A stretch of DNA of 62,089 nt, from positions 1-62,089 of the forward strand of contig CAIUUK010000013.1 in assembly GCA_903902315.1 (NCBI GenBank). Reading direction: 5' to 3'. The notes below the pieces were generated by a model. The model worked only from the letters and a program-made list of their open reading frames with translations, had not been told where the DNA came from and made no database searches. A program made the position numbers and the translations under genes. This document shows, one piece after another, positions 33,040-50,061 of the stretch (position 1 is the stretch's first letter; every line of letters starts with the position of its first letter). The stretch is from an uncultured bacterium (GTDB lineage: Bacteria; Patescibacteriota; Minisyncoccia; Phycocordibacterales; PALSA-1337).

Positions 33040-33113
33040 GGTGGCTATAGTTTAGTGGTAAAACTTCGGTTTGTGGAGCCGATATCGAGAGTTCGATTCT
33101 CTCTAGCCACCCA
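33040..33113 (+). tRNA. tRNA-His (anticodon GTG) with encoded G-1
   Basis: Hand fold: G-1 plus GTGGCTA/TAGCCAC acceptor, TCGGT/GCCGA anticodon stem with loop TTGTGGA, GAGAG-TTCGATT-CTCTC T arm, discriminator C. Confidence 0.9.
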
Positions 33114-33293
33114 TTAGAGTGCTTAATATAACCTGTGAATCTAGCTTGATATCTAGGGATTTTTTAGTTTTTGTGTTTGCCTAGCAGATGGTTTTTTGAT
33201 GCAATAATTTGCTTTTGGATAGGGGCTATCGCTCAGTTAATATAACTTTATGTTTTATTTATGAGTTTAGGTCTAAAGCTATGTAACCCCATT

Positions 33294-33331
33294 CTATTCC
33301 AATTTGTGGTAGAAGTTGTATAGTATATAAG
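33294..33331 (+). promoter_or_regulatory. Promoter-like motif shared with 43248-43285
   Basis: CTATTCCAATTTG-n6-AAGTTGTATAGT occurs upstream of both 33352 and 43320. TTCCAA and TATAGT are spaced like -35 and -10 elements. Confidence 0.45.
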
Positions 33332-33351
33332 TCTAAAGCCTCCATATTATT

Positions 33352-33543
33352 ATGAATAAAATGATTCTCGCTTCTCTTTGTATATTGGTTGTACTAACAA
33401 CTTTCACCTTTCAAGCGGAGGCTCGTGCAAGGTACAGTAGCATTAGGGTCGGCGGCTACAATAGTCACGGTAAGGCTAGTCATTATATAGGTGGATATGT
33501 GCGTAGTACGCATACGATTAAATATTATTTGAAACACTATTAA
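33352..33543 (+). CDS. Small secreted protein, 63 aa
   Basis: Signal peptide followed by a GGY..HGK.SHYIGGYVRS motif related to the N-terminus of the 43320 product (SGYYRSNGTYVNGYERT). Confidence 0.45.
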   Translation: MNKMILASLCILVVLTTFTFQAEARARYSSIRVGGYNSHGKASHYIGGYVRSTHTIKYYLKHY

Positions 33544-33548
33544 AATTT

Positions 33549-34016
33549 ATGACTATTTTTTGTCATCAATGTGGTAAAAAGATTGACAGTGATGCTAGAT
33601 TTTGTGAATCATGTGGAGCTACAATTAAAAGCAATGTTTCTAAAAGTAATGAATCAGAACACGAATTAAAGACGCCAGTAGTTAGTATGTCTTCCGGTTC
33701 GTTGATTAAATGTGGAAGTTGTCACTATGAGGGTCAGGGAGAACCTGCTAGAAGTATTGCCGGTATTATCCTCGCTTGTCTTTGTATATTTATAGCATGG
33801 CCAATTACTCTTATATATTTTCTTGTTACTTATAAGCATCAGTGTCCTAAATGTAAATCGACTTTTGTTAGTGTAAAAAATATTGCAGGTGAATTTATTC
33901 CACAAAGTAAATCTACATCTAGAACAATATTGAAGATAATCGGATGGGGACTATTTGGAATAGCGTTATTAATTATTGTATCAATGGTTTTGTTGTATTT
34001 TCCAGTCTGGAAGTAA
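33549..34016 (+). CDS. Zinc-ribbon protein with a LITAF-like membrane-inserted second zinc ribbon
   Basis: N-terminal CHQCG...FCESCG. It is followed by CGSC...hydrophobic stretch...CPKC, then a C-terminal TM. Confidence 0.55.
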   Translation: MTIFCHQCGKKIDSDARFCESCGATIKSNVSKSNESEHELKTPVVSMSSGSLIKCGSCHYEGQGEPARSIAGIILACLCIFIAWPITLIYFLVTYKHQCPKCKSTFVSVKNIAGEFIPQSKSTSRTILKIIGWGLFGIALLIIVSMVLLYFPVWK

Positions 34017-34049
34017 TAGGTAATACTTAAATATATAAAAAATAATAAA

Positions 34050-34931
34050 ATGCATTGCACAAATTGCGGTAAACAAGTAAATACAAATGAAAAGTTTTGC
34101 ACTGGTTGTGGAAAACCTTTATCGCACAAGTCAAAGTCATCTAATTTTAAATTCAGGGGACGTCCTTTAAATATTCCAGGGTTGGTAGTCATCCTTATTA
34201 TTATTGTCCTCGTGATATATGGTGCTTATGCAAGTTCACAGGATGATACGGCTCGACAGTCAAATGATCAGGGTCTAAGTAGTATGAATAATGGCAACAC
34301 TCAGTTAGCTACTCAGCAACTTCAAAGTGCATCGCAAACTGCATCAGATGATAATATAAAGAGAGCCACTTTAATTAATTTGGCTTATGTTTATGAGTCA
34401 GACAATAAAGATTTGCAAGCATTAACTACTTTTAAACAAGCGTTACAGCTCGCTCAATCTAATACATCAGATTATTATTTAATTTTGGCCGAGATTGCCG
34501 ATCTTCAAGGAGATCAATATTCTGCCTATACTAATTTTAATAATGCAGATCAGATTAATCCGAATAATTACCAAATTACTAATTCACTCGGATTGTTCTA
34601 CCTCGATTTAGATAATACCTCTACCAACTACGAGAATTATCCTAAAGCACTTATTCTCTTAAAGAAGGCGTACTCCATAGCACCTGTGGTTAATGGCGAA
34701 ATTGCAAAACAGAACTTAGCTATAGCATATTGTCTTAATGATAATTACGCTCAAACTATTAGCCTTTTATTGAATGAAAATTTTAATAACTTCCCATATT
34801 CTGCATATTGGTTGGGTCTGGCTTATTTGGGTGAGGGTGATTCAATAAACGGTAGATTTTATTTGCAAAAGGCAGTTAATCTAGGTGCAAATGTACCGCA
34901 AAAGATTAAAGATTTTCTTAATTCAAACTAA
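34050..34931 (+). CDS. Zinc-ribbon / TM / TPR-repeat protein
   Basis: CTNCG...FCTGCG, one TM, then TPR-like repeats (ATLINLAYVYESDNKDLQALTTFKQAL..., YWLGLAYLGEGDSINGRFYLQKA). Confidence 0.6.
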   Translation: MHCTNCGKQVNTNEKFCTGCGKPLSHKSKSSNFKFRGRPLNIPGLVVILIIIVLVIYGAYASSQDDTARQSNDQGLSSMNNGNTQLATQQLQSASQTASDDNIKRATLINLAYVYESDNKDLQALTTFKQALQLAQSNTSDYYLILAEIADLQGDQYSAYTNFNNADQINPNNYQITNSLGLFYLDLDNTSTNYENYPKALILLKKAYSIAPVVNGEIAKQNLAIAYCLNDNYAQTISLLLNENFNNFPYSAYWLGLAYLGEGDSINGRFYLQKAVNLGANVPQKIKDFLNSN

Positions 34932-35389
34932 TGATTATATTTGGCTGGCGTACAATTGTCACAAAACTAGGCATAGTTTTTAAAAGGTTATGTGATCATT
35001 GTCACAATGAAGAATATTGGATTCTAAATAGAGTAACCAAATGGTTTACATTATTTTTTATACCAGTAATTCCTTATGACTCAAATTATTTTTTTAGTTG
35101 TCCAATTTGTAAGTACGGTTTTAATTTAAACACAGATCAGATTAAGGCATTTAAACCAATAGCAGAAATTAATCAATTGTTGATGGAAGGAAAGATAAAT
35201 CAAGATCAATATCAAGTGAAATTAAACGAGATTAATGGGGCGGTACAAAATCCTCTACAGTCAAATAAATCTGATGAGGCGGAATCGAGCATAAAACCAG
35301 AATTACAATATTGTGCGAATTGTGGCACTTTGGTTGCTAAAGAGATAAAATTTTGTGGTAATTGTGGGGTTAATGTAATTCCGAATTAA
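34931..35389 (+). CDS. Zinc-ribbon membrane protein
   Basis: CDHC...CPIC flank a hydrophobic segment. The C-terminal CANCG...FCGNCG is a further zinc ribbon. TAATG overlap with the upstream gene. Confidence 0.5.
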   Translation: MIIFGWRTIVTKLGIVFKRLCDHCHNEEYWILNRVTKWFTLFFIPVIPYDSNYFFSCPICKYGFNLNTDQIKAFKPIAEINQLLMEGKINQDQYQVKLNEINGAVQNPLQSNKSDEAESSIKPELQYCANCGTLVAKEIKFCGNCGVNVIPN

Positions 35390-35393
35390 ACAT

Positions 35394-36800
35394 ATGTTTT
35401 GTAAAAGTTGTGGAAAACAATTAGGTGATAGTGCAAAGTTCTGTACAGGTTGTGGCATAAAGACAGCAAGCAAAGTTGTTGTACATAAACAGATCCTTGC
35501 CCGGTCTAAATCTTATAAAGGATTATTGATTTTGGTTGGCGCTTTAGTCCTTGTTGTAATTATAATTTTATCGTTTGTTACTAATACAGGTTCAATTTCT
35601 AAGAACACCAATATTCGAGATGATAATACAAAAGCGGTTGTGGATATCCTTTGTGATAATAATAAGGGCGGTTCGGGAACTATCTTCACAAATGACGGCA
35701 CAATATTAACCAACAACCATGTTATCGCTGGTGCTTTATCATGTAAAATAACCATCCCGAATCCTTCTACGGGAGGTATTTCAGAAGTTTACGAAGCGGC
35801 TCCTGTAATAGCTTCAGGATTAAGCAAAAAATATGATGTTGCAACTTTGAAAATCAATTCAGCCTATACAGATAGTGACGGAAAAGTTTGGGGCATTTAT
35901 CCTAGAGAATTTCCAACTTTTGTTTTACCAAGTACCTGTAATGTGAGTGTTGCCTCTAAGTTAGGTGATTTTGTGAGGGTATACGGGTATCCAGTGACTA
36001 GTGGCGGTTACAATCTAACTATTACCGATGGAGTCGTAAGTAGCTTTTCTGATGATGGGGATATACTTACATCAGCACAAATTGATAGTGGTAATTCGGG
36101 AGGTCTTGCTATTGATCAGAATGGTTGTTGGTTAGGAATACCTTCAGCGGTGGTTTCTGGTAATTATCAAAACCTTGGTGTCATAATTCCTGGTAATGTT
36201 GTTAAAGCTTTTCTCGATAATGTCCCAGCTAAATTAAGTCCTACCGAAAATACGAATTCGGTTTCAGACACTGTGGTTGCACCCCAAGAGTCGAATGATC
36301 AGATATGTCAGGATAGTTATGGTACTTATAGCGAATGGAGCGGGAAATTAAACAGTAAAGAAAAACCAACTTGTACATGTCAGACTGGTTATTCTTGGGA
36401 CAGTAGTGGAAATTCTTGTGCGGTCCAGACAACACTACAACAAGAATGTATCAATTCTTATGGAACTGGCAGTTATTCATATCCACAAAACGGAAAGGCT
36501 GTTTGTGGATGTTCGTCTGGCTATATTTGGAATTCAGATCAAACTGCGTGTGTGGTTCCTCAGGTTACAAAAGACCAACAATGCCAGAATAGTTACGGTG
36601 CAAGTAATTGGACGGGTGAATTAAATGGTCAGGGAGGACCAGTGTGTTCATGTAATACGGGTTATACATGGAATTATGGTCAGACTCAGTGTGTGGCACT
36701 TTCTCCTGATCAGGTATGTCAAAGAGATGTTGGGGCAGGAAGTTCTTATTTAGGATATAAAAATTCTGATGGAACATATGCTTGCAGTTCAGCCTATTAA
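35394..36800 (+). CDS. Zinc-ribbon / TM / trypsin-like serine protease with four C-terminal Cys-rich repeats
   Basis: CKSCG...FCTGCG, a TM, then the S1-type triad context TNNHVIAG, YDVATLKI and DSGNSGGLAI. Four repeats of C..SYG...G.LN....P.C.C..GY.W....C follow. Confidence 0.7.
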   Translation: MFCKSCGKQLGDSAKFCTGCGIKTASKVVVHKQILARSKSYKGLLILVGALVLVVIIILSFVTNTGSISKNTNIRDDNTKAVVDILCDNNKGGSGTIFTNDGTILTNNHVIAGALSCKITIPNPSTGGISEVYEAAPVIASGLSKKYDVATLKINSAYTDSDGKVWGIYPREFPTFVLPSTCNVSVASKLGDFVRVYGYPVTSGGYNLTITDGVVSSFSDDGDILTSAQIDSGNSGGLAIDQNGCWLGIPSAVVSGNYQNLGVIIPGNVVKAFLDNVPAKLSPTENTNSVSDTVVAPQESNDQICQDSYGTYSEWSGKLNSKEKPTCTCQTGYSWDSSGNSCAVQTTLQQECINSYGTGSYSYPQNGKAVCGCSSGYIWNSDQTACVVPQVTKDQQCQNSYGASNWTGELNGQGGPVCSCNTGYTWNYGQTQCVALSPDQVCQRDVGAGSSYLGYKNSDGTYACSSAY

Positions 36801-36812
36801 ATTTATTAATCT

Positions 36813-37031
36813 ATGAAATTTGGTCTTAGAAAATTTTCGTTAAACAAAAGAATCGCAGCGCGTACTTCATGGAAGAGGGTGGTTAGACATTCTATAGGTT
36901 TAAAAGCTCCACGGGGTTTTGGTTGGTTCACGGACCCTAAGAGAGCGCTTTATAACAGAGTCTATAATCGTACAAGTGTAAGTGTGGATAAATTGGTTAT
37001 TAGTATTTTCAAGCTATTTTTTCCTAGGTAG
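36813..37031 (+). CDS. Small basic hypothetical protein, 72 aa
   Basis: ORF-track ORF whose 3' end overlaps the recombinase stop region. Coding status is uncertain. Confidence 0.3.
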   Translation: MKFGLRKFSLNKRIAARTSWKRVVRHSIGLKAPRGFGWFTDPKRALYNRVYNRTSVSVDKLVISIFKLFFPR

Positions 37032-38604
37032 TTTGAGGATTATAAAGTTCTCTTGCGAAACTGAAGTCTTTGATATTTCCAGTCATAATCTCTGGGCTGA
37101 CACTGCTCAAATTGATTGTCTTTTGATGTAATAGCTCCTGAAATAGCGGGGAATAATGTTCAGCTATGATGATTCCGTCTTTTACTTCAAATTTATCAAA
37201 GAAAAAGTCGATTAAGCGTTTTTGTATCCTCTCTGGTGCTTTAAGATATGTCTGATAAATATCTCTCGTGAAGTTGAGGATCTCAGCAAGTGCATCGACA
37301 TTGATTTCCTTTGTTTTCTTGAGTTCACTGATCTTATGGTTAATTCTGTCTATATGACCTGATATCTCGTCTCTAATACGCGTATAGTCGGGTTTAGACA
37401 GTGTCTCATCGAGAAGTCTATCCTCAGCAGTCTTGAGTTTTGCTTCCCACGCATTCTTTTGGTTTAACAAGCCTCGAATATTTGTATCGTAAGATTGCTT
37501 CCTTGTTTCATATGTCTCTTTCACTTTAGCGATGATTGAGTCTATAAATCCTCGGTCGAGTTGGACATTTTTGAACTTATTAGCTACCTGTTTTTCGAGG
37601 TCTGACTTTTCAATATACTTACCACATCCAGTTGGGTTAGAGCAGTGATAGTATGCTTTGCCTTTTGCGAGGTGCCATTCTGCTGTGTATCTCCGCTTAT
37701 GAATGGCACAGAAGATGTAACCAGTAAGGAGCCAGAAGTATTTTCTTCGTCTGCAACGATTGTTAGTATTTCCATCTATGATGTTTTTCACTTGATTGAA
37801 AGTGGTTTCATCGATGAGGTGTTCGTGTTTACCGTCTTTCACATTGATATCTCGCCAGTGTATCTCTCCGAGATAGATTCGATTTCTCAGCATATCGTAA
37901 AACATGCTTGGCGCTAACTTCTTATTTGTATGAGAAACAAGACCTTTCTCATACATCATATCGTTTAATTCGAGGGCATTATATTGACCAGTCGCATAGA
38001 GTTTAAATGCTTCGGTTACAAGGGGTCCAACTTTTGGATGGGGGACAATAATTTTTTTAGCTACTTTCTCACAGAACTGATCTGGATTTTTACAATTTGT
38101 GAAGCCTATCGGAGCATGCGTTGGATAGTACCCAGCCAGAGCTTTTGCGTCTGTGGCTTGTCTGGTTTTTTCTCTAGTGTTGTCTGAGTGATATTGATTG
38201 ATTGTGGCAAACATATTGTCAGCCATGATCGAGCAGGCGTCTTCACCAGAGGATTGTCCGTTTAGATATTTTAGCTGAACTCCATTTGAAAGAAATGTGT
38301 GTCTCAAGAATGAGTGGTCAACAATATTTCGTGCTAGTCGATCCGAATGAGTAACGTATATTATCGATATCTCTCTATTCTTGGCGAGTTCAATGACTTC
38401 CTGAATACCTTTTCGGTTTAGGTTCTTTCCACTTTTACCCTCATCTTTAATAATCTTGATGTCAGTATAGCCATCACGAATAGCCGCCGTACGGCACTGT
38501 TGTTCTTGGTAGTCGAGAGAAATTCCATTGTCCGCCTGATCGTCAGTGGAAACTCTATTGTACCCAAGTGCAGTATTTTTATTTTTAGGGATTTTCCGTT
38601 CCAT
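37024..38604 (-). CDS. Large serine recombinase
   Basis: GYNRVSTDDQ catalytic Ser context, THSDRLARN, a recombinase domain, a Cys cluster (C...YHCSNPTGCGKY) and a coiled-coil tail. Confidence 0.9.
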   Translation of the reverse strand: MERKIPKNKNTALGYNRVSTDDQADNGISLDYQEQQCRTAAIRDGYTDIKIIKDEGKSGKNLNRKGIQEVIELAKNREISIIYVTHSDRLARNIVDHSFLRHTFLSNGVQLKYLNGQSSGEDACSIMADNMFATINQYHSDNTREKTRQATDAKALAGYYPTHAPIGFTNCKNPDQFCEKVAKKIIVPHPKVGPLVTEAFKLYATGQYNALELNDMMYEKGLVSHTNKKLAPSMFYDMLRNRIYLGEIHWRDINVKDGKHEHLIDETTFNQVKNIIDGNTNNRCRRRKYFWLLTGYIFCAIHKRRYTAEWHLAKGKAYYHCSNPTGCGKYIEKSDLEKQVANKFKNVQLDRGFIDSIIAKVKETYETRKQSYDTNIRGLLNQKNAWEAKLKTAEDRLLDETLSKPDYTRIRDEISGHIDRINHKISELKKTKEINVDALAEILNFTRDIYQTYLKAPERIQKRLIDFFFDKFEVKDGIIIAEHYSPLFQELLHQKTINLSSVSPEIMTGNIKDFSFARELYNPQTT

Positions 38605-38694
38605 TTGTGGGTATATTAAGCGTCCTTTCCTTTATGTGTGAAGGCAACTCTAGTTATGAACCTTTGTACACATGGGTTGGATTTCTTTTATTTA

Positions 38695-40056
38695 TTAATT
38701 AATAAAGTGAATCGGTCCCGTGTGTGGGTCACTTGGTTTTTCTGTGGTTGTAGAAGGTAGAGGTGACAGTCCACGTATTTCTCGACACTCGTTACTAATA
38801 AACCACTCAAACTCTTTCTTCAAATGAATTTCTTCTTCTGGTTGTCCGACACCTCCACGACTTTCTTTTGCAATGTTGCATATACCGAGTATTTCAAGAG
38901 TATTCATCTCTTTGAGAGCTGTAGGTTTTGATTGGTTTAATTTTTTTTCAACCTCGTTCGTCTTCATAATGCCGTTGTAGTCAATTAATGCTCTGAAAAG
39001 ACTTGAACGGCTTGTATAACCACTATCAAAACAAAGTTCTATAGTTGCCTTGAGATCACTTCGTTCAATCTGTTTTCTTCCGTGTACGAGAGCGTAACCA
39101 CGACACTGGTTATATAAGAGTTGGTTGATGCGGTCAGATTTTTCAATAGTAGGAGTTGCATAGCTATATTTTGTCTCACCCCAATCATCTGAGGACCACA
39201 CATTAACTGCACCTCTCAATTTAGCTAGTAGCCCAGAACAACGCGCAATGATTGTCATAACATCTTCTGGATCATTCTCGTTATTCCAAATAATGCCGTT
39301 TGGATTTTCTGACCACAAAGTTTTAACGAAAGCGTTAGTTATCTCCCTACAAGCAGTTTCTTTTCCTTTGTAAGCCTTACTCTTTAATTGTTTAACGAGT
39401 TCTTCGTCCGTTTTGTTACGTGAATTCATTCGAAGAAAGAAAAGCCTTGAGCCTAGATTTCCCATGATCTTGAAGATCTTTGGTGATATGGGTGTTGAAG
39501 CTCCTAACATCATAAATAGGTATTCGCCTTTATATCCTCTTTGACCATGAACTCCCGATTCCGTGTCCAGTCCCTCGCCGTCGAGCACACGGGTGAGGAG
39601 ACCGAGCAGTTCAGTCAAATGTTCTTCTTTCTTAGAAAACATTGTTGCCATATCTCTAAGTAAGAACATTTTATATCTGATACGTGGTAAAAGGTCGACT
39701 TTTTCAATCTGATCTCTTGAGACACTTGGAGAGTTGGTTACAAATGATGCTGGTGTAAATTTGTCTGTTGCATAGGTGAGACCCTCAATTCCATCAAAGA
39801 AGTTCACTACGATGGTCTTTCCAGCCGCTGGTACATCTACAAGAACTAATGCAAATGGATTAGTGATCTCTTTGATAAGAATTTGAGCGATGATTGAGAG
39901 CCCTATTTCGGCAGGAAAGAGAAGGTCTGGAAAGTTGTTCTTGATAACCTTCTGCCACTCATTAAAATAAACTGGCTTCTCTGGTTTCTCAAACTGTTTG
40001 ATACGCCCGATTTTTTCTGGTCCGTCTTGTGGAAGCATGGTGCTAATGTGTTCCAT
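38695..40056 (-). CDS. P-loop NTPase-like protein with a C-terminal winged-helix-like region; putative replication or helicase-loader function
   Basis: Walker A-like VDVPAAGKT and Walker B-like KMFLLRDMATMF. Its operon position lies between a DNA-binding protein and the recombinase. Family not identified. Confidence 0.45.
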   Translation of the reverse strand: MEHISTMLPQDGPEKIGRIKQFEKPEKPVYFNEWQKVIKNNFPDLLFPAEIGLSIIAQILIKEITNPFALVLVDVPAAGKTIVVNFFDGIEGLTYATDKFTPASFVTNSPSVSRDQIEKVDLLPRIRYKMFLLRDMATMFSKKEEHLTELLGLLTRVLDGEGLDTESGVHGQRGYKGEYLFMMLGASTPISPKIFKIMGNLGSRLFFLRMNSRNKTDEELVKQLKSKAYKGKETACREITNAFVKTLWSENPNGIIWNNENDPEDVMTIIARCSGLLAKLRGAVNVWSSDDWGETKYSYATPTIEKSDRINQLLYNQCRGYALVHGRKQIERSDLKATIELCFDSGYTSRSSLFRALIDYNGIMKTNEVEKKLNQSKPTALKEMNTLEILGICNIAKESRGGVGQPEEEIHLKKEFEWFISNECREIRGLSPLPSTTTEKPSDPHTGPIHFIN

Positions 40057-40064
40057 GTAATTGT

Positions 40065-40190
40065 TTAATTAATTTGTAATGACTTGTCGCTAGCTTTGTC
40101 TTTTATCTTCATATCGATTAGTTGTAAGAAAATGGTTGCAAGTAGTTCGACTGCTTCTTGGTTTTGCCCATGATCGTTTTGCTTAATCAT
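40065..40190 (-). CDS. Unannotated 41-codon ORF (MIKQNDHGQNQEAVELLATIFLQLIDMKIKDKASDKSLQIN)
   Basis: Below the ORF-track length cut-off. Its stop lies 9 nt upstream of the ATG of the P-loop gene, consistent with operon coupling. Confidence 0.3.
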   Translation of the reverse strand: MIKQNDHGQNQEAVELLATIFLQLIDMKIKDKASDKSLQIN

Positions 40191-40299
40191 GGGTGCAGTT
40201 TAGAATGCACAAAAAATACCCGAAATTGGGCTTTTTAGGATCTTTCCATTTTGTGGCTAGCCAGCTAGATTTTTTAGGGCTGAAAAGTCCTACTTGGTT

Positions 40300-41001
40300 T
40301 TATTCATCCACTTTCTTTATCTGAATGATGTATTTATTTGTAGTGAAATTTTCAATAGTTATTGGCATACCACTGTCTTTAAGCTTTCTTCGTAGTTTTT
40401 TCAACGCTGATCGGAATGAGCCCTCGTCTCTATAGGGGACAGATTGTTCAAGTTCTTCTCTATTGATTTCCACTCCTTTTTTTGTAGTTTTTCCATCTGG
40501 TGAGATAATCCTTGGATTTTCAAGAAATATTCCCATCATCGTATAGTGACCTCTTTCAATCGGAAGTACGACGTCTCCCCAGACAATAGTCTTATTCAAT
40601 AGTTTAGGTGTGCCACGCAGACGATAAAATTTTTTCAAGAATAGATCTAGTTGCTTTGGAGAATCAATCAGTTCTTTAAGTCTAATCTCGTCTGTTTGGA
40701 TATCCGACTTCTTTTTCCATTCCAAGTCAATATTACCAATTGTAAATCCGCCTGTTCTTCTCTCAATCATTTCTTTCGTTGGAGCTATGTCATAATCCTC
40801 ATCACCTGGATCCCAAGGCATAATCTGATACTCAAATATCTCAGCTTTTCGAAAAAGATCCAAGATTTCGATAATTTTTGGCTTTGGAATATCCAACTCC
40901 TCCTCTAGCGATTTGAAGCTCCAGACGGGTCCAATCTTTTGAGCGCGAATCGCGAAATTAGCTAATTTCTTTATATCCTCTTTTACGTTTCTTGTTTCCA
41001 T
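40300..41001 (-). CDS. Putative DNA-binding protein with an OmpR/PhoB-type winged-helix-like C-terminus
   Basis: The C-terminal EELEQSVPYRDEGSFRSALKKLRRKLKDSGMPITIENF resembles the trans_reg_C pattern. It is the first gene of the reverse-strand operon. Confidence 0.4.
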   Translation of the reverse strand: METRNVKEDIKKLANFAIRAQKIGPVWSFKSLEEELDIPKPKIIEILDLFRKAEIFEYQIMPWDPGDEDYDIAPTKEMIERRTGGFTIGNIDLEWKKKSDIQTDEIRLKELIDSPKQLDLFLKKFYRLRGTPKLLNKTIVWGDVVLPIERGHYTMMGIFLENPRIISPDGKTTKKGVEINREELEQSVPYRDEGSFRSALKKLRRKLKDSGMPITIENFTTNKYIIQIKKVDE

Positions 41002-41086
41002 ATCAAATTAAATTTACCGTGTATAAGCTTTTCATTCAAGTCCTAATCTAATCGACAGCGCCAGTCTACAGTGATATATTTGTAGT

Positions 41087-41243
41087 ACAACTGAATACCG
41101 AAAGTAGCCTAAACCACTAACGTGGCATGGTGAATAACCCAGTCAAGGACAAAGAACCCATCGTGTGGGATTGCCTTGACTGGTCATATCGGGAAACCGG
41201 TATGGGGGACTTCGGTCCTCACCCCGCGGTGGGCTTTTTGTTT
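41087..41243 (+). ncRNA. Highly structured RNA leader or sRNA ending in a terminator 10 nt before the 41253 ATG
   Basis: Putative promoter: TCGACA at 41052-41057 and TG-n-TATATT at 41072-41080. Perfect 10-bp stem 41139-41148/41174-41183. GAAA-capped 8-bp hairpin at 41185-41204. UUCG-capped 6-bp hairpin at 41205-41220. CACC-ccgc-GGTG followed by GGCTTTTT. Confidence 0.45.
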
Positions 41244-41252
41244 ACCTAATCT

Positions 41253-41795
41253 ATGCAGTTCAAGATTCCAAAACTTGTTATAACTGATAAAAAAGATTTT
41301 TTGGAATTTTGGGCTAGACGATACACGTACTCGTTGGATGGACTATATGAAGAAAATATCAATCAGCCTTTAAATGAGAGTTGTGTTATAGAACTCTATC
41401 GTTGGAAGAATGGAACTGACCTATCGGAGAAGAAATTAGATTTGGTGAAGAGAGTATACATTCCTGAACTGAATCATTTACCGAAAATTGAGACTGTTGA
41501 GCAGGGTAGAGAGTATTTATTAAAACTCAATCGTGGGCAGATTTGGGATTTCTTCTGGCTTCATTGTTTGAACCCAAAGTTATTTCCAATATTTGATCAG
41601 CATACTTACAGAGCCATGGCTGAAATGGAAGGGCTAGCTGTACCAGAGATCCCATACTCGACAGAGAAGAAACTTGATATGTATTTTTCTCGCTACATAC
41701 CTTTTGTCTCAAAGATCGGTGGTGATATGCGTCTTTTGGATAAGGCACTTTTTGCGTATGGAAAGGAATTAAAGACAGGACCCTTTTCTCCATAG
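41253..41795 (+). CDS. Hypothetical protein, 180 aa
   Basis: Clean ORF with no recognisable motif and no obvious Shine-Dalgarno sequence. Confidence 0.5.
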   Translation: MQFKIPKLVITDKKDFLEFWARRYTYSLDGLYEENINQPLNESCVIELYRWKNGTDLSEKKLDLVKRVYIPELNHLPKIETVEQGREYLLKLNRGQIWDFFWLHCLNPKLFPIFDQHTYRAMAEMEGLAVPEIPYSTEKKLDMYFSRYIPFVSKIGGDMRLLDKALFAYGKELKTGPFSP

Positions 41796-41845
41796 ATAGG
41801 GGAATATGAGGAGGTATACCTTTATCAATCATTTAATTTAAAACT

Positions 41846-42352
41846 ATGTCTGAACAAAATAACAAAGTGTGGAAGAGTGCATTGAAAGTAGTTGGCATCG
41901 TATTAATTACCGTAGTCGTTATTTGCGGTATCTTGGTATTCATAGGTATTAGGGATGCTGTTAATTATAGATCATCAACAACATACACTCAGCCAGTATC
42001 TCAACAGACTATACAAACACAAGAAACCAATGATATGACTTGGCATACTGTATTCTCGTTGAGTAATAGCAATAAATTTTACAATACATCTGCTTTTGCT
42101 ATGAAAGGAAGTCAGTGGCGTATTTCATGGAGGTGTAGACTTACTGATCAATCTATTGGTGGTGAGGGAGGCTTTGCTGGAAGCATAGATTCCGTTGTCG
42201 ATAATACTGGACATACTTTTGCTCTTGATGACGGTTGTAAGTTGGCTACTACCACGACCACCAATTATTATGGAGAAAAACCTGGGCAATATTATCTCAA
42301 ATTTGGTCCGTCATACTCGATTTACAGTGTTATGGTAGAGGATTACTACTAA
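41846..42352 (+). CDS. N-terminally anchored extracytoplasmic hypothetical protein, 168 aa
   Basis: Single N-terminal TM (VVGIVLITVVVICGILVFIGI). Confidence 0.5.
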   Translation: MSEQNNKVWKSALKVVGIVLITVVVICGILVFIGIRDAVNYRSSTTYTQPVSQQTIQTQETNDMTWHTVFSLSNSNKFYNTSAFAMKGSQWRISWRCRLTDQSIGGEGGFAGSIDSVVDNTGHTFALDDGCKLATTTTTNYYGEKPGQYYLKFGPSYSIYSVMVEDYY

Positions 42353-42358
42353 TCAGTA

Positions 42359-42631
42359 ATGAAAAAGAAACATACAGCCAGATACATAGAAAGACACAAG
42401 AACTTTTATTGTATCGATTGCAAGAAAGACACATGGTATGAATACTACACAGTCAATAATCGGCTGTGGAAAAAGATCAATCCAAAAATAAGTGGAATGC
42501 TCTGTATTGGCTGTGTTGAAACACGATTAGGAAGAAAGCTGAAAAAGGCAGATTTTGCGGATAAACCTATTAATACAAAGAAGTTTACTCGAACACCAAG
42601 GCTGATCAATAGGTTACAGAGAGAAGTTTGA
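42359..42631 (+). CDS. Small basic zinc-finger protein, 90 aa
   Basis: CIDC...CIGC four-Cys arrangement. It starts 7 nt after the preceding stop. Confidence 0.45.
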   Translation: MKKKHTARYIERHKNFYCIDCKKDTWYEYYTVNNRLWKKINPKISGMLCIGCVETRLGRKLKKADFADKPINTKKFTRTPRLINRLQREV

Positions 42632-42801
42632 AGAATTTGGCTAAAATAAATCACCTAAAAATTAGGGAAAACTGTCATAAAACTCATTTTCGTGTTTTTA
42701 TTATTTTTTAGAGAATGCCGTAGTTAAAAGGGTAGTTTGAAAACTGTCGTTGACCTCGCTTGTGGTTATGTGGCTGTCACTTTACCATCACGGGAATATC
42801 G

Positions 42802-43035
42802 TTATTTGATCAGACCTAGCATCAATAATCGAATAGTGAGTGCCTGTTCGCTTACATCAAACTTAGTTGCTAGCTCCTTTAGGTTTAATGTCTTTCCTTC
42901 AGTTTCTTTTCGTATCATCTGTTCTGGTACGGGGAGATGTATATAGATAAAGATGTATCGGTTACATTTGATCAAAGACCTCCGTACCCTCGGTATTTCA
43001 CTACTGATGAAAAGATTGAGGGTGATCTTATGCAT
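42802..43035 (-). pseudogene. Possible remnant of an HTH or ImmA/IrrE-type regulator
   Basis: Only the C-terminal LNLKELATKFDVSEQALTIRLLMLGLI looks protein-like. The upstream part is low quality. Confidence 0.25.
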
Positions 43036-43236
43036 AGATACGGTTATATAGAAATGCCTATTTTCCCATTAGATAAGGTTCCTTTTGTACACGAAATTAA
43101 GTTGAGATTAAAAGAAAAAAGAGAGGTACGAATCTATTATTACTTTAGAACCGATTTAGGTGATTCCCCAATCTGGTCATGGATAGCGATGTCTCGTGGA
43201 AAGTATACTTGGCTGAAATGTCTGAAGGTCAGTTAG
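42937..43236 (+). CDS. Hypothetical protein, 99 aa
   Basis: ORF-track ORF that overlaps the antisense remnant. Coding status is uncertain. Confidence 0.3.
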   Translation: MYIDKDVSVTFDQRPPYPRYFTTDEKIEGDLMHRYGYIEMPIFPLDKVPFVHEIKLRLKEKREVRIYYYFRTDLGDSPIWSWIAMSRGKYTWLKCLKVS

Positions 43237-43319
43237 ATTACGTACTCTCTATTCCAATTTGCGTAATAAGTTGTATAGTTAATACACAAGCGCTGGTTTA
43301 AATAATCAGTCTAACTAAA

Positions 43320-44252
43320 ATGAGAAAACTACTTATAACAAGTGTGTTATTCCTATTTATTCTAGTAGTTCAAATTTCAACTGCTCATGCGGTATATGTA
43401 AGTGGATATTATAGAAGTAACGGCACTTACGTTAATGGATATGAACGAACAGCTCCTGACGGTAATCCGTATAATAATTATAGTTATCCGGGAAATTACA
43501 ATCCAAATACAGGAAGCATTACAGGCGGAAGTGATAGCACATATTTAAATAATTATTATAGTAGCGGGTCTTCGGGTAGTACTTACTATTCTTCTCCTAC
43601 ATCGTATAGTAGTTACTCTTACCCAACTACACCGACATGCCCATTAAATTCATATTATGATGGTATTTCTACTTGTAAGTGTAATTATGGGTATGTTGTT
43701 AGTGGGGGAAGTTGTGTTTCCGCAAATAGTATTTGTTACAACCAGCTTGGCTATAGTTCTAGTTATGATTCAACAAGTAATACCTGTAAGTGTGACTATG
43801 GCTATGTGATAGGATCCTCTGGTCAATGTACTAGTGGTACAAATTACTGTTATTCTAAAACAGGTTATGAGTCCACCTATGATTCAAGTAGTAATACATG
43901 TAAGTGTAATAGTGGTTATGTGTTAAATACTTTAGGACAGTGTGTCGCACAAGCGCCATTGGTACCACAAATAAGCACAACAAATCTCACGTCTAAATCG
44001 GCTGTGGTGGTCTATGAAAAATATAGTTGTGACTATTTTATCGTTAAAGATAGTGGTGGTGATTATGATTTATTAGAGTGGTATAGCGGTTATGATCCAA
44101 GTTCGGGCGATATTTTAAAAGGGAACTTCCATACATACGGTTTTCATGATTTTTATAATTCCTCATATACTAGAAAGACCCATGTCTGGATTGAGGATTG
44201 GTTGTTAACTTGGGATGATGCAATTAGTCAGTATAAAGATAAATGTAATTAA
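43320..44252 (+). CDS. Secreted Cys-rich repeat protein, 310 aa
   Basis: Signal peptide, a YVSGYYRSNGTYVNGYERTAPDGNPYNNYS motif, and repeated C.C.YGYV....G.C units similar to those in the 35394-36800 protease. Confidence 0.6.
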   Translation: MRKLLITSVLFLFILVVQISTAHAVYVSGYYRSNGTYVNGYERTAPDGNPYNNYSYPGNYNPNTGSITGGSDSTYLNNYYSSGSSGSTYYSSPTSYSSYSYPTTPTCPLNSYYDGISTCKCNYGYVVSGGSCVSANSICYNQLGYSSSYDSTSNTCKCDYGYVIGSSGQCTSGTNYCYSKTGYESTYDSSSNTCKCNSGYVLNTLGQCVAQAPLVPQISTTNLTSKSAVVVYEKYSCDYFIVKDSGGDYDLLEWYSGYDPSSGDILKGNFHTYGFHDFYNSSYTRKTHVWIEDWLLTWDDAISQYKDKCN

Positions 44253-44254
44253 TT

Positions 44255-44545
44255 ATGAATGAGGAAGAAACAATCGGTGGTATAGGTTTCTTGCTACTTA
44301 TAGCAGTGATTTGGCTTGGTGTTACTGTTCATAGTCAAAATAAACAAATTGATCAACTCAAAGGAGTTATTAATGATTGTGATTCGGCAGTTACTGATGC
44401 AAATCAGAATATTAGTGATCTTAATGATCAAATCGATAATGCTAAGAATGATGCATGGAGTGATTATGACACTATGGGACAATCGCTTGAGAATTTAACT
44501 AGTGGAGATCAAGTTGAAAATCCTTGTTATGTTCCACAACAGTAG
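44255..44545 (+). CDS. Bitopic coiled-coil hypothetical protein, 96 aa
   Basis: One TM then an Asn/Asp/Gln-rich helix. It starts 2 nt after the upstream stop. Confidence 0.45.
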   Translation: MNEEETIGGIGFLLLIAVIWLGVTVHSQNKQIDQLKGVINDCDSAVTDANQNISDLNDQIDNAKNDAWSDYDTMGQSLENLTSGDQVENPCYVPQQ

Positions 44546-44610
44546 TTATATTACCTTTTGGATAGTGACAAAAAACCGATCGTATCACTTAAATATTCGA
44601 GTTTCATTTT

Positions 44611-44729
44611 GGGCTAGCCAGAATCGAACTTTTGATATGGTTGAGCTGTGATATTACAAATTTGTTGAATTAGGCTATAGGGAATTGAACTTTGGAAAAT
44701 TGAGTTAGTTCGATTCTCGGTAGGCCTAC
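44611..44729. repeat. Degenerate tRNA-His 3'-end copies, one inverted and one direct
   Basis: The reverse complement of 44611-44630 is GTTCGATTCTGGCTAGCCC. 44707-44729 reads AGTTCGATTCTCGGTAGGCCTAC. The tRNA-His end is GAGTTCGATTCTCTCTAGCCACC. Confidence 0.5.
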
Positions 44730-44818
44730 TATTGACAGATATACATTAAATATGCTATAAAATTAGCGTAGGTGATTTTTTGCAAAAAAACAACAATCAA
44801 CCAAATAGAACTTTGAAT

Positions 44819-45112
44819 ATGAAACTATCGAATGAAGAAATGGCCGAAGCGATTAATTTGCTCGGAATCCTCCATGAAGGTGGCTCAATTCGCTACTTCG
44901 CTGTGGCTGGTGGGCAAGCGGTGCACGGAAAAGATGGCAAACCAATGCCTTCAGAAAAATGCTCAATCACAGTCTTCCTTGATTTACGGGAGAATGGGAT
45001 GATCGAAATGACTGAACGAAACGTCATGGGGTATCCATACTATGCCGATAATCATCGGTCTGATGTCTACAGGATGACCGATGTAGGTCGTGCATTTCTG
45101 GAGAACAAATGA
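44819..45112 (+). CDS. Hypothetical protein
   Basis: ORF-track ORF 44780-45112 with a TTG start. The ATG at 44819 (MKLSNEEMAEA) was preferred. A strong terminator follows. Confidence 0.45.
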   Translation: MKLSNEEMAEAINLLGILHEGGSIRYFAVAGGQAVHGKDGKPMPSEKCSITVFLDLRENGMIEMTERNVMGYPYYADNHRSDVYRMTDVGRAFLENK

Positions 45113-45185
45113 TTCGGGACATCCCTATTTAGCAGGAAGGGAAGTAGGTTTTAATAGAGTTGAAGAACTCTCCAAAATCTCTCAG

Positions 45186-45214
45186 GTCACACTTCGATCA
45201 GTGTGACTTTTTTA
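45186..45214 (+). terminator. Rho-independent terminator
   Basis: GTCACACT tcgatc AGTGTGAC followed by TTTTTT. Confidence 0.7.
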
Positions 45215-45366
45215 TTTTATACATTGTATTCAATGGTGGGGTAGAGTGATGGAATATACACCGTCGCATTACCCCTATCCCTAAACCTAGTTAAAGTAAC
45301 TTCTAAATCTTTCTCAACTAAGCCATCCTATACCACAGTTATAATAACGTTTGGATAGCCACCCCA

Positions 45367-46539
45367 TCAATGTGTATGCTCGAATTCCTCGACTTTGCGC
45401 ATCTCGCCGGCGACGACAGTTGTATCGGCTTGGACAGCTTCTTTTTTCTTCATCAAAAAGAAAATAGCGATCACTGTTGTTATTGGCACAGCGAGAATTA
45501 GTCCGATTGATCCGACCATGGCCCGAATAATCTCGGTGGCGAAGATCTCACGGTTAACGGTCAAGGCAAAGTCGGCACCAGACTGATAGAAAAGCAAAAG
45601 CAGGGGCAAGGAGGCTCCGACATAGGCGATAGCCAGAATATTTACAAGCGCTCCGATATGTTCGCGACCAATGCGCAAAGCACGTTTGAAAATAATAGTG
45701 CGAGGCAGGTGCGGACCGATATGGTGAAGCTCGTCGACGGCAACAGCTTGGCCTATGGCGGCATCATAGAGTACGCCAAGGAGACCGATGAGAATGCCGC
45801 CCATCAAGAGGCCGGCAAAGTCTATGGTCCCGTTGGTATTCATATTTAGATAGACTGATTCATCGCTTGAGAAGCCAGTGAGTTTCGCGCCGTGGATCGA
45901 TATGTACGCCAATACGCCGGTGAATATGATCGTCGCAACCATGCCGACCACGGCCGAGGTGGTCACTCTATTGAATCCGTGTGTGATATACGATCCGAGA
46001 ATGATCATGAGGGACGCTACGCCAATCGACATGAGGATTGGAGAGAATCCGTGAAGTATTCCGGGGAAGAGTACGTATGCGATGACAACAAAACTTAATG
46101 CCAAGGCGATCAATCCTCTGAACCCTTGCTTGCCGCCGAATATGAGTACGCAAAGCACAAATAATCCGACGAGACCATAAAGCCACGGCAGGCGATACGG
46201 ATCAGAGACAGCGTACATATCGAAGCTCTCAAGTGAATCGACGGTGTGCGTAAGGTATACAACGTCACCGGCCTTGAGTTCGATGTAATCATTTTCGACG
46301 CTGACTTCTTTTCCTTGCTCATTGCCGTCGAGAATCTTGACCTGGAGCATCTGATCGAGACTGTTCACATTCGTGCCGGGCACATTTTGACGCTTGGCAC
46401 TCGTGACCTCAACTACCACTGCCTTCATTGTTGTTATCTGGTCAGGGACCAACTGCTGGGCGTGAGTAGTGTTGAATACGAGAAAACTTCCAAATACGAG
46501 AATGGCTAAGGAAAAAATCTGTTTGAATCGGCCTGTCAT
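45367..46539 (-). CDS. YibE/F-family membrane protein
   Basis: Signal/TM, an extracytoplasmic N-terminal domain, then multi-pass YibE/F-like helices (GKQGFRGLIALALSF..., LYDAAIGQAVAVDEL). Confidence 0.75.
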   Translation of the reverse strand: MTGRFKQIFSLAILVFGSFLVFNTTHAQQLVPDQITTMKAVVVEVTSAKRQNVPGTNVNSLDQMLQVKILDGNEQGKEVSVENDYIELKAGDVVYLTHTVDSLESFDMYAVSDPYRLPWLYGLVGLFVLCVLIFGGKQGFRGLIALALSFVVIAYVLFPGILHGFSPILMSIGVASLMIILGSYITHGFNRVTTSAVVGMVATIIFTGVLAYISIHGAKLTGFSSDESVYLNMNTNGTIDFAGLLMGGILIGLLGVLYDAAIGQAVAVDELHHIGPHLPRTIIFKRALRIGREHIGALVNILAIAYVGASLPLLLLFYQSGADFALTVNREIFATEIIRAMVGSIGLILAVPITTVIAIFFLMKKKEAVQADTTVVAGEMRKVEEFEHTH

Positions 46540-46617
46540 AATGTCAAGTATACCAGAGAATTTTCATTAAAAAACTCTGCAACCCATAAAATGAATTGCA
46601 GAGTGCGAACGTGTCTT

Positions 46618-48150: not shown

Positions 48151-48250
48151 ATCACACCTCCGTTTGTTGTTGGTTTGTTAAAGAGCACAGTTGAAAGAAC
48201 AATGTAGGGCGACACATATCACCCTTGTAAGCGGACAATTGTTTACCCGC

Positions 48251-49564: not shown

Positions 49565-49647
49565 AGGTGCAATATACTTGCATTTGCATAGTACACAAAA
49601 TACGTTCTTGTTGCAAATTATTAACATTTAGCTTATGATACTTCTAT

Positions 49648-50061
49648 ATGTCAAAAGACTTTCCTGGCTTACTTAAAGAGAAGGGGCTGAAGAATACACC
49701 TACGAGAAGGGCGATTCTTGATGTCTTTTCGGCCGACTGCAAGCCGATCAATGCCGAATATATTCACGAGAAGCTGAAGAAATCCGATATTAATCTAGTG
49801 ACTATTTACCGTACCCTCGAATCTTTTGAGGAGGCTGGTATTTTGAAGCGTGTCAGTTTAAACAAAGCATCATCATATTACGAGCTTGCCGCAAATCATC
49901 ACCATCACCTGATCTGTACGAATTGTGGGACCGTCGAAGGTTTTAAGGAATGCGACATTGGCGATGTCTCGCGCAAAGCTTTGAAGGATTCAAAATTTCA
50001 GACCGTTAGCGGTCATTCACTGGAGCTTTTCGGAAAGTGCAAGAAGTGTGCGAAGGCATGA
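49648..50061 (+). CDS. zur: Fur-family metalloregulator, probably Zur
   Basis: TPTRRAILDVF wHTH, HHHHLICTNCG and CKKC structural Zn site. It is divergent from the COG0523 operon. Confidence 0.8.
   Translation: MSKDFPGLLKEKGLKNTPTRRAILDVFSADCKPINAEYIHEKLKKSDINLVTIYRTLESFEEAGILKRVSLNKASSYYELAANHHHHLICTNCGTVEGFKECDIGDVSRKALKDSKFQTVSGHSLELFGKCKKCAKA

Follow-up and report, generated by a model that had tools for sequence, protein, structure and literature searches.

Probable accretion of integrative elements with large serine recombinases at a tRNA-His gene of an uncultured patescibacterium

Introduction

What has been inserted behind the tRNA-His gene of contig CAIUUK010000013.1, and is it one mobile element or several? 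The contig (assembly GCA_903902315.1), whose 62,089 nucleotides are called the window below, comes from an uncultured bacterium of the Patescibacteria (Candidate Phyla Radiation, CPR), Paceibacterota group. The protein encoded just 5′ of tRNA-His has its nearest relatives, at 89–92% identity, in metagenome-assembled genomes of Paceibacterota/Patescibacteria. A preliminary description had proposed an island of 11.6 kb, running from tRNA-His to degenerate copies of its 3′ end and closing at 44730. Comparison with related loci (L numbers) leads us to another right limit and to a reading that we consider likely, namely that 33113–45366 is an accretion of two to three integrative elements of one family at tRNA-His. 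Unit (i), at 37030–44566, appears near-complete and near-canonical, with a recombinase, an ATPase, a 233-aa protein, a LOOT RNA, cargo and a P arm of an attachment (att) site. Unit (ii), at 33113–37030, is best read as the remains of a sibling, with an attL, a recombinase pseudogene and distal cargo under a promoter homologous to one in unit (i). The right part (iii) would consist of a displaced tRNA flank and, beyond it, a remnant of 0.8 kb closed by another P arm, which adjoins a tRNA-His-like core. No description of this element family was found in the literature.

Integration Site

The tRNA-His(gtg) gene (33041–33112, forward strand; ARAGORN, and 67 bits in Rfam) is the integration target, and its last bases, CCACCCA (33107–33113), are the core that it has in common with attP. 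Housekeeping genes for BipA, L19, an HD protein and a Cob_adeno_trans protein lie 5′ of it, and about 40 relatives keep the order pseudouridine synthase, (BipA), L19, tRNA-Leu, Cob_adeno_trans, tRNA-His. Beyond the tRNA, Pfam and PHROG searches gave zinc-ribbon membrane proteins, a recombinase and unknowns, in agreement with the earlier remark that housekeeping genes end here. Insertion at the tRNA 3′ end, also proposed before, is borne out by blastn against seven relatives, where all alignments reaching tRNA-His end at 33112 or 33113. Concerning the closest syntenic relatives (L005 and L040), homology is back only at ~52.5–53.0 kb; the genes that the window has at 52.3 kb lie just 3.5–5 kb from tRNA-His there, with unrelated genes in between. 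Because homology is lost at 33112/3 and resumes only at ~52.5–53.0 kb, the region 3′ of tRNA-His is judged to be a hypervariable spot, ~19 kb long in the window (to ~52.3 kb against L005/L040). The variable region is thus longer than the 11.6 kb of the preliminary description.

GC content alone is no marker of the island (0.35–0.38 against a backbone of 0.39, or 39%). Tetranucleotide distance from the backbone, a k-mer measure of the kind suggested in the preliminary description, sets off both cargo blocks (left cargo z = 3.5 with GC 0.35, right cargo z = 3.3), but leaves the recombinase/ATPase half with the backbone (z = -0.3).

Recombinases and Attachment Sites

An apparently intact recombinase of 526 aa is encoded at 37024–38604 on the minus strand. 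The PF00239 resolvase catalytic domain covers residues 12–158 (E = 2.5e-28), with the motif YNRVSTDDQ in the translation, while PF07508 gives E = 5.8e-10 and PF13408 stands at its cut-off (25.3 bits). It matches the phrog_95 integrase (E = 3.2e-66), and the best NCBIfam matches are XisF and CcrB/C. The protein is a predicted large serine recombinase with the three domains Resolvase, Recombinase and Zn_ribbon_recom. Its homologues (32–67% identity), as far as their 3′ flank is available, all lie ~75–120 nt from a convergent tRNA-His (n = 10; L019, L025/L052/L053, L026, L051, L054, L057, L059, L060; L025, L052 and L053 are copies of one element), and in all 10 loci the recombinase adjoins the tRNA with no cargo between. 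In the three loci with flank beyond the recombinase gene, more distant recombinases, encoded beside homologues of the ATPase described below, have gene 3′ ends that overlap tRNA-Val(cac), tRNA-Gln(ctg) or tRNA-Glu(ctc). The recombinase open reading frames (ORFs) enter the tRNA antisense by 7–52 nt, with tails such as ..SSVIINPQLGGYWELNPD*. The stops 7–52 nt inside tRNA-His were seen in L019, L025/L053, L026, L051, L054, L057, L059 and L060, where the last residues (..LGGYWELNPD, ..LGAYRDSNSN) are set by the tRNA sequence, unlike the free-form tail. No close relatives of recombinase or ATPase were found in IMG/VR.

The intact recombinase of the window ends 3.9 kb from tRNA-His and only a relic at 33109–33258 has the canonical position, for which reason the island is read as composite. 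The preliminary description had suspected as much from the recombinase in mid-island, with a seam at ~37.0 kb, and the relic, a second arm and a canonical unit starting from ~37.0 kb all uphold this. The element of ~37.0–44.7 kb that it had delimited is recovered as ~37.0–44.6 kb, in canonical gene order. The tail of the intact recombinase (..ELYNPQTT*) is homologous to the attP-arm-encoding tail of relatives (..SSVIINPQLGG..), and its own P′-type end may tentatively be placed at ~37024–37052.

At the tRNA itself, an attL occupies 33107–33132 (forward strand), with the core CCACCCA, a 9-nt spacer and the P′ motif TTAATATAAC. The same layout (tRNA end, 9–10 nt, T(T/A)AT(A/T)ATAAC) recurs in L019, L025/L053, L026, L051, L054 and L057, and more loosely in L059. 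All loci of that set carry the recombinase, and relatives without recombinase lack the layout. In this comparison with the elements of recombinase homologues, as had been advised for defining att sites, the P′ motif stands at a fixed distance from the tRNA end, in occupied sites only. The window arm at 33114–33132 is as in occupied sites, yet the intact recombinase is 3.9 kb off. The motif TAATATAAC occurs four times in the window (one expected), three of them at island junctions. An attL-type motif (TAGTAAATGC-TAATATAAC) also follows tRNA-His directly in L041 (10631–10660), a distant relative in which tblastn gave no recombinase and a YibE/F homologue lies 4 kb downstream; this is possibly another decayed insertion.

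The relic (33109–33258, minus strand) corresponds to the 3′-terminal ~50 codons of a gene for such an enzyme, interrupted by two stops in frame (IKHKVILTER*PLSKSKLLHQKTIC*ANTKTKKSLDIKLDSQVILSTLMGG*). It is colinear with the extreme C-termini of recombinases in L055 (E = 2e-4), L054 (E = 0.002) and L053, the E-values ranging overall from 2e-4 to 0.03 in blastx on a small database. With the intact recombinase of the window it has LLHQKTI in common, at ~69% DNA identity. These matches identify it as a putative second, decayed recombinase 3′ end in the canonical tRNA-adjacent position. The tRNA 5′-end-like fragment reported earlier at 33222–33238 (GGGGCTATCGCTCAGTT) is present, but it lies within this minus-strand pseudogene, encodes ..TER*P.. 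there and is no part of a tRNA. Likewise, 33207–33247 had been considered as an internal attP-like palindrome under a three-element model and was dropped, since its translation is recombinase pseudogene.

An attP could be read from locus L055 (JACCDN010702271.1, 1100–1330). Its gene order is circularly permuted (recombinase tail, cargo on the minus strand with type III restriction-modification, a 429-aa protein, DUF5659) and the distal end of the cargo is fused to the 3′ end of the recombinase gene, so that L055 is probably an excised circle or a tandem copy and gives attP directly. The site reads GTTCTAACAT-CCTCTACGAC-GGCACCCA-ATTCACTAC-TTATTATACC (N10 and N9 spacers). Two 10-nt motifs in inverted orientation thus enclose a spacer with the last 8 nt of tRNA-His. 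Past the core, the ORF runs into non-tRNA sequence, and therefore free and integrated forms would encode different recombinase tails.

Two P arms of this kind were located at the right of the island. Arm (c), GTTATATTACCTTTTGGATAG at 44545–44565 (forward strand), is of attP type, with the inverted P′ motif at the right distance, and is joined straight to the old tRNA flank; CTTTTGGATAG is exact only here and at 33212. Arm (d), GTTATAATAACGTTTGGATAG at 45338–45358, is followed by CCACCCCA (to 45366, same strand) in a junction of attR type, right against the stop codon of yibE/F. It is identical to arm (c) at 18/21 positions, whereas elsewhere in ~1 Mb of loci and the window only chance-level matches with 4–5 mismatches occur. 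Within the window, TAGCCACCC is confined to two places, tRNA-His and the junction behind arm (d). The architecture of arm (d) agrees with the attP of L055. The outer right boundary is accordingly set, from these junction sequences, at 45366 and not at 44730 as first described. Concerning the CCA end, the window tRNA-His ends in TAGCCACCC-A, with CCA incompletely encoded. A full CCA is present in the tRNA-His of L005 (10650–10661) and in the copy that follows arm (d) (45356–45366), both of which read TAGCCACCCCA. Incomplete encoding would fit a present tRNA-His end that was supplied by an element. Between the two arms lies an ORF of 110 aa (44780–45112, forward strand) with a terminator-like hairpin and T-tract at 45184–45219. 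PHROG, NCBIfam and Pfam-type scans gave no family match for it, and 44780–45219 is possibly remnant cargo of a third element.

Putative Replication Genes and Cargo

Next to the recombinase, at 38695–40056 on the minus strand, lies the gene of a 453-aa AAA+ ATPase with a C-terminal winged helix and the Walker A motif VPAAGKT. It has more than 1200 homologues at E <= 0.001, the best 120 at 54–62% identity, and many of them are fused N-terminally to Toprim or Prim-Pol primase domains; the window copy is without a primase domain. The alignment shows Walker A and invariant acidic and arginine residues. An AlphaFold (AF2) model from 39 sequences (pLDDT 81) found MCM subunits (MCM2-7, MCM8/9) as best Foldseek matches, then BchI and RavA, with E ~1e-5 and a TM score of only ~0.4; BchI and RavA score on par with the MCM subunits. 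No match was obtained in Pfam (including the MCM family), PDB sequences, 50,697 phage records or 72,556 plasmids. From the modelled fold we infer an MCM-like AAA+ replication ATPase and a candidate replicative helicase. The 233-aa protein that follows (40300–41001, minus strand) has no family match in Pfam, PHROG or NCBIfam and no similarity to the same-position proteins of relatives. It stands in the slot where relatives carry helix-turn-helix (HTH)/MerR-like, DnaA_N-containing or DUF5659 proteins, a position that would suit a regulator or initiator.

The contexts of five ATPase homologues gave a common plan. Cargo is in an operon on one strand, and the opposite strand holds an HTH/MerR-like or DnaA_N protein, DUF5659, a small ORF, the (primase-)ATPase, 0–4 small ORFs and the recombinase. 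The window order is 37024–38604(-), 38695–40056(-), 40300–41001(-), LOOT 41106–41220(+) and cargo(+). The same order of ATPase, recombinase, LOOT and cargo is kept in L025/53, L051, L059, L045, L050, L068 and L069. Related elements are 7–14 kb in size, and their cargo includes zinc-ribbon membrane proteins (L050), a Trypsin_2 protein (L045), metal resistance (L048) and restriction-modification of types I, II and III (L068, L069, L055). A search for circular contigs gave no terminal overlap in L068, L069, L051 or L055.

The right-element cargo operon (41253–44545, forward strand) encodes proteins of 180 aa, 168 aa (transmembrane, TM), 90 aa (phrog_6053), 99 aa, 310 aa (secreted, with Cys repeats; 43320–44252) and finally 96 aa (TM/coiled-coil, with weak matches to Rz-like spanins). 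The cargo of the decayed left element (33352–37031, forward strand) comprises, with Pfam assignments, a secreted protein of 63 aa, a zinc-ribbon membrane protein (33549–34016), a zinc-ribbon/TPR protein (34050–34931), a Zn_ribbon_15 protein (34931–35389), a zinc-ribbon/Trypsin_2/Cys-repeat protein (35394–36800) and a basic protein of 72 aa (36813–37031). Among related elements, L050 and L045 also carry Zn_Ribbon_1 and Trypsin_2 proteins as cargo. Repeats of the form C-x-C-x-x-G-Y occur both in the 310-aa protein and at the C-terminus of the trypsin-like one (BLASTP E = 0.005). The Cys module is of ~37 residues, C-x-C-(N/D/S/Q)-x-G-Y-x-(W/V/L)...C, and the weak Pfam hints are EGF/TIL-like.

Both cargo blocks are also linked by a promoter-like repeat, 5′ of the 63-aa protein at 33293–33329 and in the right operon at 43248–43284 (both forward strand), with 31/37 positions identical (84%); a 30-nt pattern drawn from it matches the window twice, against 0.00 expected. 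This duplication had been noticed before and is confirmed. The N-terminal motif said to accompany it in the 63-aa and 310-aa proteins is weak, as BLASTP leaves the N-termini unaligned and DNA identity is ~50% past the promoter. Since its limit towards the tRNA is formed by a canonical attL arm together with the decayed 3′ end of a recombinase gene, the zinc-ribbon block is best read as the remains of a second element of the same family. The earlier idea of an older zinc-ribbon operon beside a recombinase element therefore holds as to the composite nature, while the operon itself would be a sibling-element remnant.

Contigs from other samples of this population (ends of L002, L003, L071-L074, L077-L080) break repeatedly at ~33042, 33254, 34574–34594, 36659 and 44204–44241, partly within Cys-repeat coding sequence. 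L071 begins with 161 nt, and L003 with 38 nt, that have no match in the window. Repeats or strain variants may be the cause.

LOOT RNA

The intergenic region between the two divergent gene sets holds a LOOT RNA (RF03000) at 41106–41220, followed by a terminator-like hairpin and T-tract at 41218–41243, all on the forward strand and 32 nt before the first cargo gene. It scores 80.1 bits in Rfam (gathering score 46.4) over the full model (positions 1–121), and a promoter-like TCGACA-17-TATATT lies upstream at 41052–41080. Its place is constant: in the divergent intergenic region, pointing into the cargo operon, 17–50 nt before the first gene. LOOT was found there by Rfam in the window, L025/L053, L051, L054, L059, L045 and L050 and by nhmmer in L069 and, weakly, L068, which makes 9/11 distinct elements; it was not detected in L048 or L055. 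A pattern scan of IMG/VR with a profile yielded four true LOOT matches, 3/4 with a serine recombinase within ~3 kb.

In 6/6 elements compared, strong pairing is possible between the ~20 nt directly 3′ of LOOT and its long hairpin (5′ strand and apex), with duplex energies of -24 to -34 kcal/mol and z of -4.4 to -6.8 in 5/6. This conserved segment corresponds to 41221–41243 in the window and to the 20–30 nt that follow LOOT in L025, L045, L050, L051 and L059; the sequences covary and are followed by CUUU(U)G. Such pairing could be a terminator/antiterminator switch or a pseudoknot outside the Rfam model, and the predicted alternative folds suggest an attenuator-like or processed regulatory RNA.

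The LOOT motif was reported by Weinberg et al. (2017; PMC5737381), and a later paper (PMC7657543) mentions LOOT helices and covariation only. No function or genomic association was found in the main text of the former or in the passages on LOOT of the latter. We put forward, tentatively and with rather less than even confidence, that LOOT is the regulatory RNA of a widespread family of Patescibacteria episomes. These would integrate by serine recombinase at tRNA 3′ ends and replicate by MCM-like ATPase/primase. A switch between the Rfam fold of LOOT and a long-range helix with its conserved 3′ segment would gate read-through from the LOOT promoter into the cargo operon, or else LOOT would serve as an immunity or copy-control RNA. 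With attP inside the recombinase ORF, the recombinase tail would report the free or integrated state.

Copies of the tRNA-His 3′ End

The degenerate tRNA-His copies at the far end of the island were re-examined with a local-alignment (Smith-Waterman) scan of both strands of the window, the last 26 nt of tRNA-His being the query. The best three non-self matches reach scores of 28 (inverted, at 44611), 24 (direct, at 44701) and 23 (another inverted copy, at 44671); those next in rank score 23–21 and are dispersed over the window. A repeat search recovers the same copy pairs (I3, I13, D16). Substitution-only matching of the 18-nt tRNA 3′ end with <=4 mismatches gave no match in the window, as the copies need indels. 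Their clustering at 44611–44729 is not due to chance. The copies reported in the preliminary description thus exist, and are the top matches of the window, but their interpretation as att sites does not stand, for the arrangement predates the insert.

Relatives without an insert carry, directly 3′ of tRNA-His, a module of terminator, inverted copy, spacer and direct copy, with only ~170 nt from tRNA to copy, and tRNA-Arg(tct) of the window carries the same module (26810–26960). The stretch at 44567–44723 is colinear with positions +2 to +166 after tRNA-His in L004 (score 48; shuffles 23.5 +/- 4.7, 0/500) and spans a terminator remnant, the inverted copies and the direct copy. Because the same module occurs at relatives without insert and at tRNA-Arg(tct), and because family elements have no far-end repeat of the last 8–10 nt of the tRNA in the available flank, the copies at 44.6 kb are best read as displaced old flank and not as att duplications made by integration. 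The region 44567–44730 (forward strand) would be a displaced, decayed tRNA-His 3′-flank module, with inverted copies at 44611–44630 and 44671–44690 and a direct copy at 44707–44729. Its decay fits the lost adjacency to the tRNA.

Among 161 tRNAs of non-redundant loci, 19 (His, Leu, Val, Arg, Ser, Met) have a direct copy of their own last 16–20 nt, 50–272 nt 3′ of the tRNA and 110–272 nt in 17/19, usually with an inverted T-arm copy between. In the module, a terminator is followed by an inverted copy of the acceptor/T-arm 3′ strand of the tRNA itself, in many cases interrupted by a GC hairpin, then by a ~75-nt spacer and the direct copy of 16–20 nt. Its inner sequence is common to different tRNA types and its ends match the adjacent tRNA; the His module of L006 and the tRNA-Arg(tct) module of the window are 74.5% identical over 102 nt (nhmmer E = 1e-15). 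Loci with modules include window 26810–26960 and 44567–44730, L004 (10659–10833), L006, L013, L017, L018, L038, L039 and others, and tandem modules occur in L013 and L038. To judge from the sequences, an inverted copy and a direct one can pair into a helix of acceptor/T-arm type that ends in ..CCA. A tRNA-like minihelix RNA, a miniature mobile element and an integration scar are possible identities of the module.

The Adjacent High-GC Cassette

Beyond arm (d), the genes of a Fur-family regulator, an aminotransferase, CobW and YibE/F form a high-GC cassette at 45358–50233 (GC 0.50, tetranucleotide z = 11.6), which looks like a zinc-limitation (zinc-starvation) module. Over 4876 bp it is 99.8% identical to L075 (6307–11182)/L076, where the context is wholly different, and therefore the cassette is a recently transferred unit. 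Its neighbours in L075/L076 are NUDIX/ArsP/thioredoxin on one side and a KAP NTPase with type I restriction-modification on the other, and its edges read ...GC(C/G)ACCCCA and ...CCTATCATGAC. One of these edges falls on the core that follows arm (d); beyond this edge in L075, at a distance of 30 nt, there is a T-arm fragment resembling that of tRNA-His. About five imperfect repeats, roughly TTACCCCAC-N10-15-CACTAT(A/T)T, follow yibE/F in L075 (11180–11900) and could be iterons or a promoter array.

Discussion

The mechanism that we propose for the family is the following. The recombinase would join an attP of ~50 bp with the tRNA 3′ end and leave the tRNA intact, inverted 10-nt motifs of attP (GTTATAATAA ... 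TTATTATAAC) flanking a spacer with the last ~8 nt of the tRNA. Its gene would lie at the element edge with the frame running across attP, and the C-terminal tail would thus differ between free and integrated forms. The MCM-like ATPase, often primase-fused, presumably replicates the excised circle, and LOOT with its terminator would head a divergent operon of variable cargo, which is surface and secreted proteins here and restriction-modification elsewhere. At the locus presented here, at least two and probably three elements would have entered tRNA-His or the direct, tRNA-like copy in the flank module. The leftmost element would have lost all between the recombinase tail and the distal-cargo promoter. 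The middle one would be nearly complete, with its right junction lacking the crossover core and its recombinase no longer beside the tRNA, and the rightmost one would be a 0.8-kb remnant. The middle element is presumably immobile today, because arm (c) is without a crossover core, while the outer pair, attL and arm (d), retain cores. Dimer integration or later rearrangement is assumed for the tandem origin; this and the order of events are the weakest part of the model. The junctions, the architecture of the family, its targeting of tRNAs and the recombinase pseudogene are shown by the sequences; the order of events, the parts played by ATPase and LOOT and the present immobility are deductions.

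Several points weigh against this accretion. The seam at ~37030 shows no clean P-core-P′ junction, and arm (c) lacks the CCACCCA core predicted between arm and flank. Serine recombinases are not expected to use attL/attR as substrates, which leaves the tandem arrangement unexplained. The origin of the 9-mer after arm (d) is ambiguous, because it is also an edge of the transferred high-GC cassette, where L075 has GCGACCCCA. Concerning canonical relatives, inverted-repeat and exact-core searches located no far-end P arms or core repeats and tblastx synteny placed no right ends; the attP model rests on L055 and the window. Exact-protein look-ups with the recombinase, the trypsin-like protein, the 110-aa protein, Cob_adeno_trans and YibE/F revealed neither an empty site nor an excised circle of this strain: the contigs with identical proteins, 20-odd in number, are all colinear with the window, although this is a weak test, made on assemblies and not on reads. 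The E-values of the relic were computed on a tiny database. The flank-module alignment is significant against L004 and not against L006, and an nhmmer profile of the relatives' tRNA-His modules missed 44.6 kb while matching the tRNA-Arg(tct) module at 26.8 kb; the 44.6-kb copy escapes the profile through excess decay, and pairwise alignment with shuffles was used instead.

As a rival reading, a single element of 11.5–12 kb would have been integrated whole, the zinc-ribbon operon being a second cargo bay between recombinase and attL and the relic its attP-proximal sequence. Every contig of the population has the same arrangement, promoter and Cys-repeat motif are common to both halves, and attL (33107–33132) and arm (d) keep the core and could be the ends of one unit. 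We nevertheless judge this unlikely. The relic duplicates ~50 C-terminal codons of the intact recombinase (LLHQKTI, ~69% DNA identity), hence there are two recombinase 3′ ends and not a single gene split in two; no cargo intervenes between recombinase and tRNA in 10/10 homologous loci; and an extra P arm, (c), would lie inside the unit.

The nature of the elements could also be viral, in that a defective prophage or phage satellite would bring a phage integrase, a phage replication ATPase and lysis or moron cargo. Matches to the phrog_95 integrase and to phrog_6053 and phrog_29674 (two families without assigned function), the weak Rz-like spanin matches of the 96-aa protein and the filing of a few LOOT-bearing contigs in IMG/VR point that way, and satellite P4 has a similar layout, with an integrase, a primase-helicase and a small RNA. 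However, no capsid, terminase, portal or tail family is present among 14 island ORFs scanned with Pfam, eight of them also with PHROGs, nor do Pfam labels on related elements name virion or packaging genes. The ATPase is without a relative in the 50,697 phage records or, at close range, in IMG/VR, and the elements measure only 7–14 kb, so that we hold a viral origin to be very improbable. A classical tyrosine-integrase island, whose att duplications would be the tRNA-His copies and inside which a serine element landed, would account for a direct tRNA 3′-end copy beyond the insert, the signature of such islands, and 19/161 tRNAs of relatives carry such a copy, mostly 110–270 nt downstream. We think it extremely unlikely, as no Phage_integrase-type family is found among the island ORFs scanned (Pfam, PHROG). 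Inverted and direct copies also stand ~170 nt from the tRNA in relatives and beside tRNA-Arg of the window, and because of this recurrence the copies pre-date the insert and are independent of it. The classical 15–50-nt direct repeat made at the distal junction was not found, the copy at 44707–44729 belonging to a module present at empty sites.

Comparison with Known Systems

Mobile elements of CPR bacteria are poorly known, and in genomes so tiny each accessory gene counts. The family described here is compact and recognisable by a tRNA-adjacent serine recombinase, an MCM-like ATPase and LOOT, and it carries surface/secreted proteins and restriction-modification. It would extend tRNA-gene targeting from tyrosine integrases to serine recombinases, and its candidate attP/attB pairs, whose sequences are defined, make interesting tools for genome engineering. 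Additionally, the orphan LOOT RNA gains a genomic home and a testable role, and tRNA-His of this lineage appears as a stacking site where elements decay into host-retained cargo.

The recombinase has the three domains (Resolvase, Recombinase, zinc ribbon) of those of phiC31, Bxb1, A118 and TP901-1 prophages, of SCCmec CcrAB/CcrC and of Anabaena XisF. As in other large-serine-recombinase elements, its gene lies at the element edge beside att, and attP and attB have just a short core in common. Unlike in these, the target is a tRNA gene 3′ end, attP lies inside the recombinase ORF and phage or SCC-type genes are absent. Transfer RNA 3′ ends are the classical domain of tyrosine integrases. To our knowledge, which is not exhaustive, characterised serine integrases target ORFs or intergenic sites, and no counter-example of a characterised serine integrase that targets a tRNA was found in a literature coverage that was likewise not exhaustive.

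The anchor at a tRNA 3′ end, with accretion and decay of elements at one tRNA, is a feature of tRNA-anchored islands and of satellite P4. The latter has a tyrosine integrase, the alpha primase-helicase and the CI immunity RNA, and the small module of integrase, primase/helicase and structured RNA before an operon resembles ours in function only. The present elements differ by a serine and not a tyrosine recombinase, by an MCM-like AAA+ ATPase in place of an SF3 helicase and by the lack of a 15–50-nt tRNA repeat. Prophage MCM-primase fusions such as BcMCM of Bacillus cereus are, like our ATPase, encoded on integrated mobile elements. By its predicted fold our ATPase may also belong to the MCM/Mg-chelatase/MoxR clade of AAA+ proteins, and its homologues are likewise often Prim-Pol- or Toprim-fused. 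Unlike BcMCM, it has no sequence match to Pfam MCM or a PDB chain, its TM score is ~0.4 and the window copy has no primase domain.

Mycobacteriophages such as BPs have integration-dependent immunity with attP inside the repressor gene. In the same way, attP lies here inside a coding sequence and integration would alter the encoded C-terminus, but the gene affected is the recombinase. Concerning LOOT, what goes beyond the known motif is its fixed place in a defined mobile element and a conserved 3′ extension able to re-pair with the long hairpin. A tRNA-anchored genomic island is in itself ordinary; what sets this family apart is tRNA targeting by a serine recombinase, attP within its ORF, an MCM-like ATPase and a fixed LOOT RNA, a combination that is apparently undescribed.

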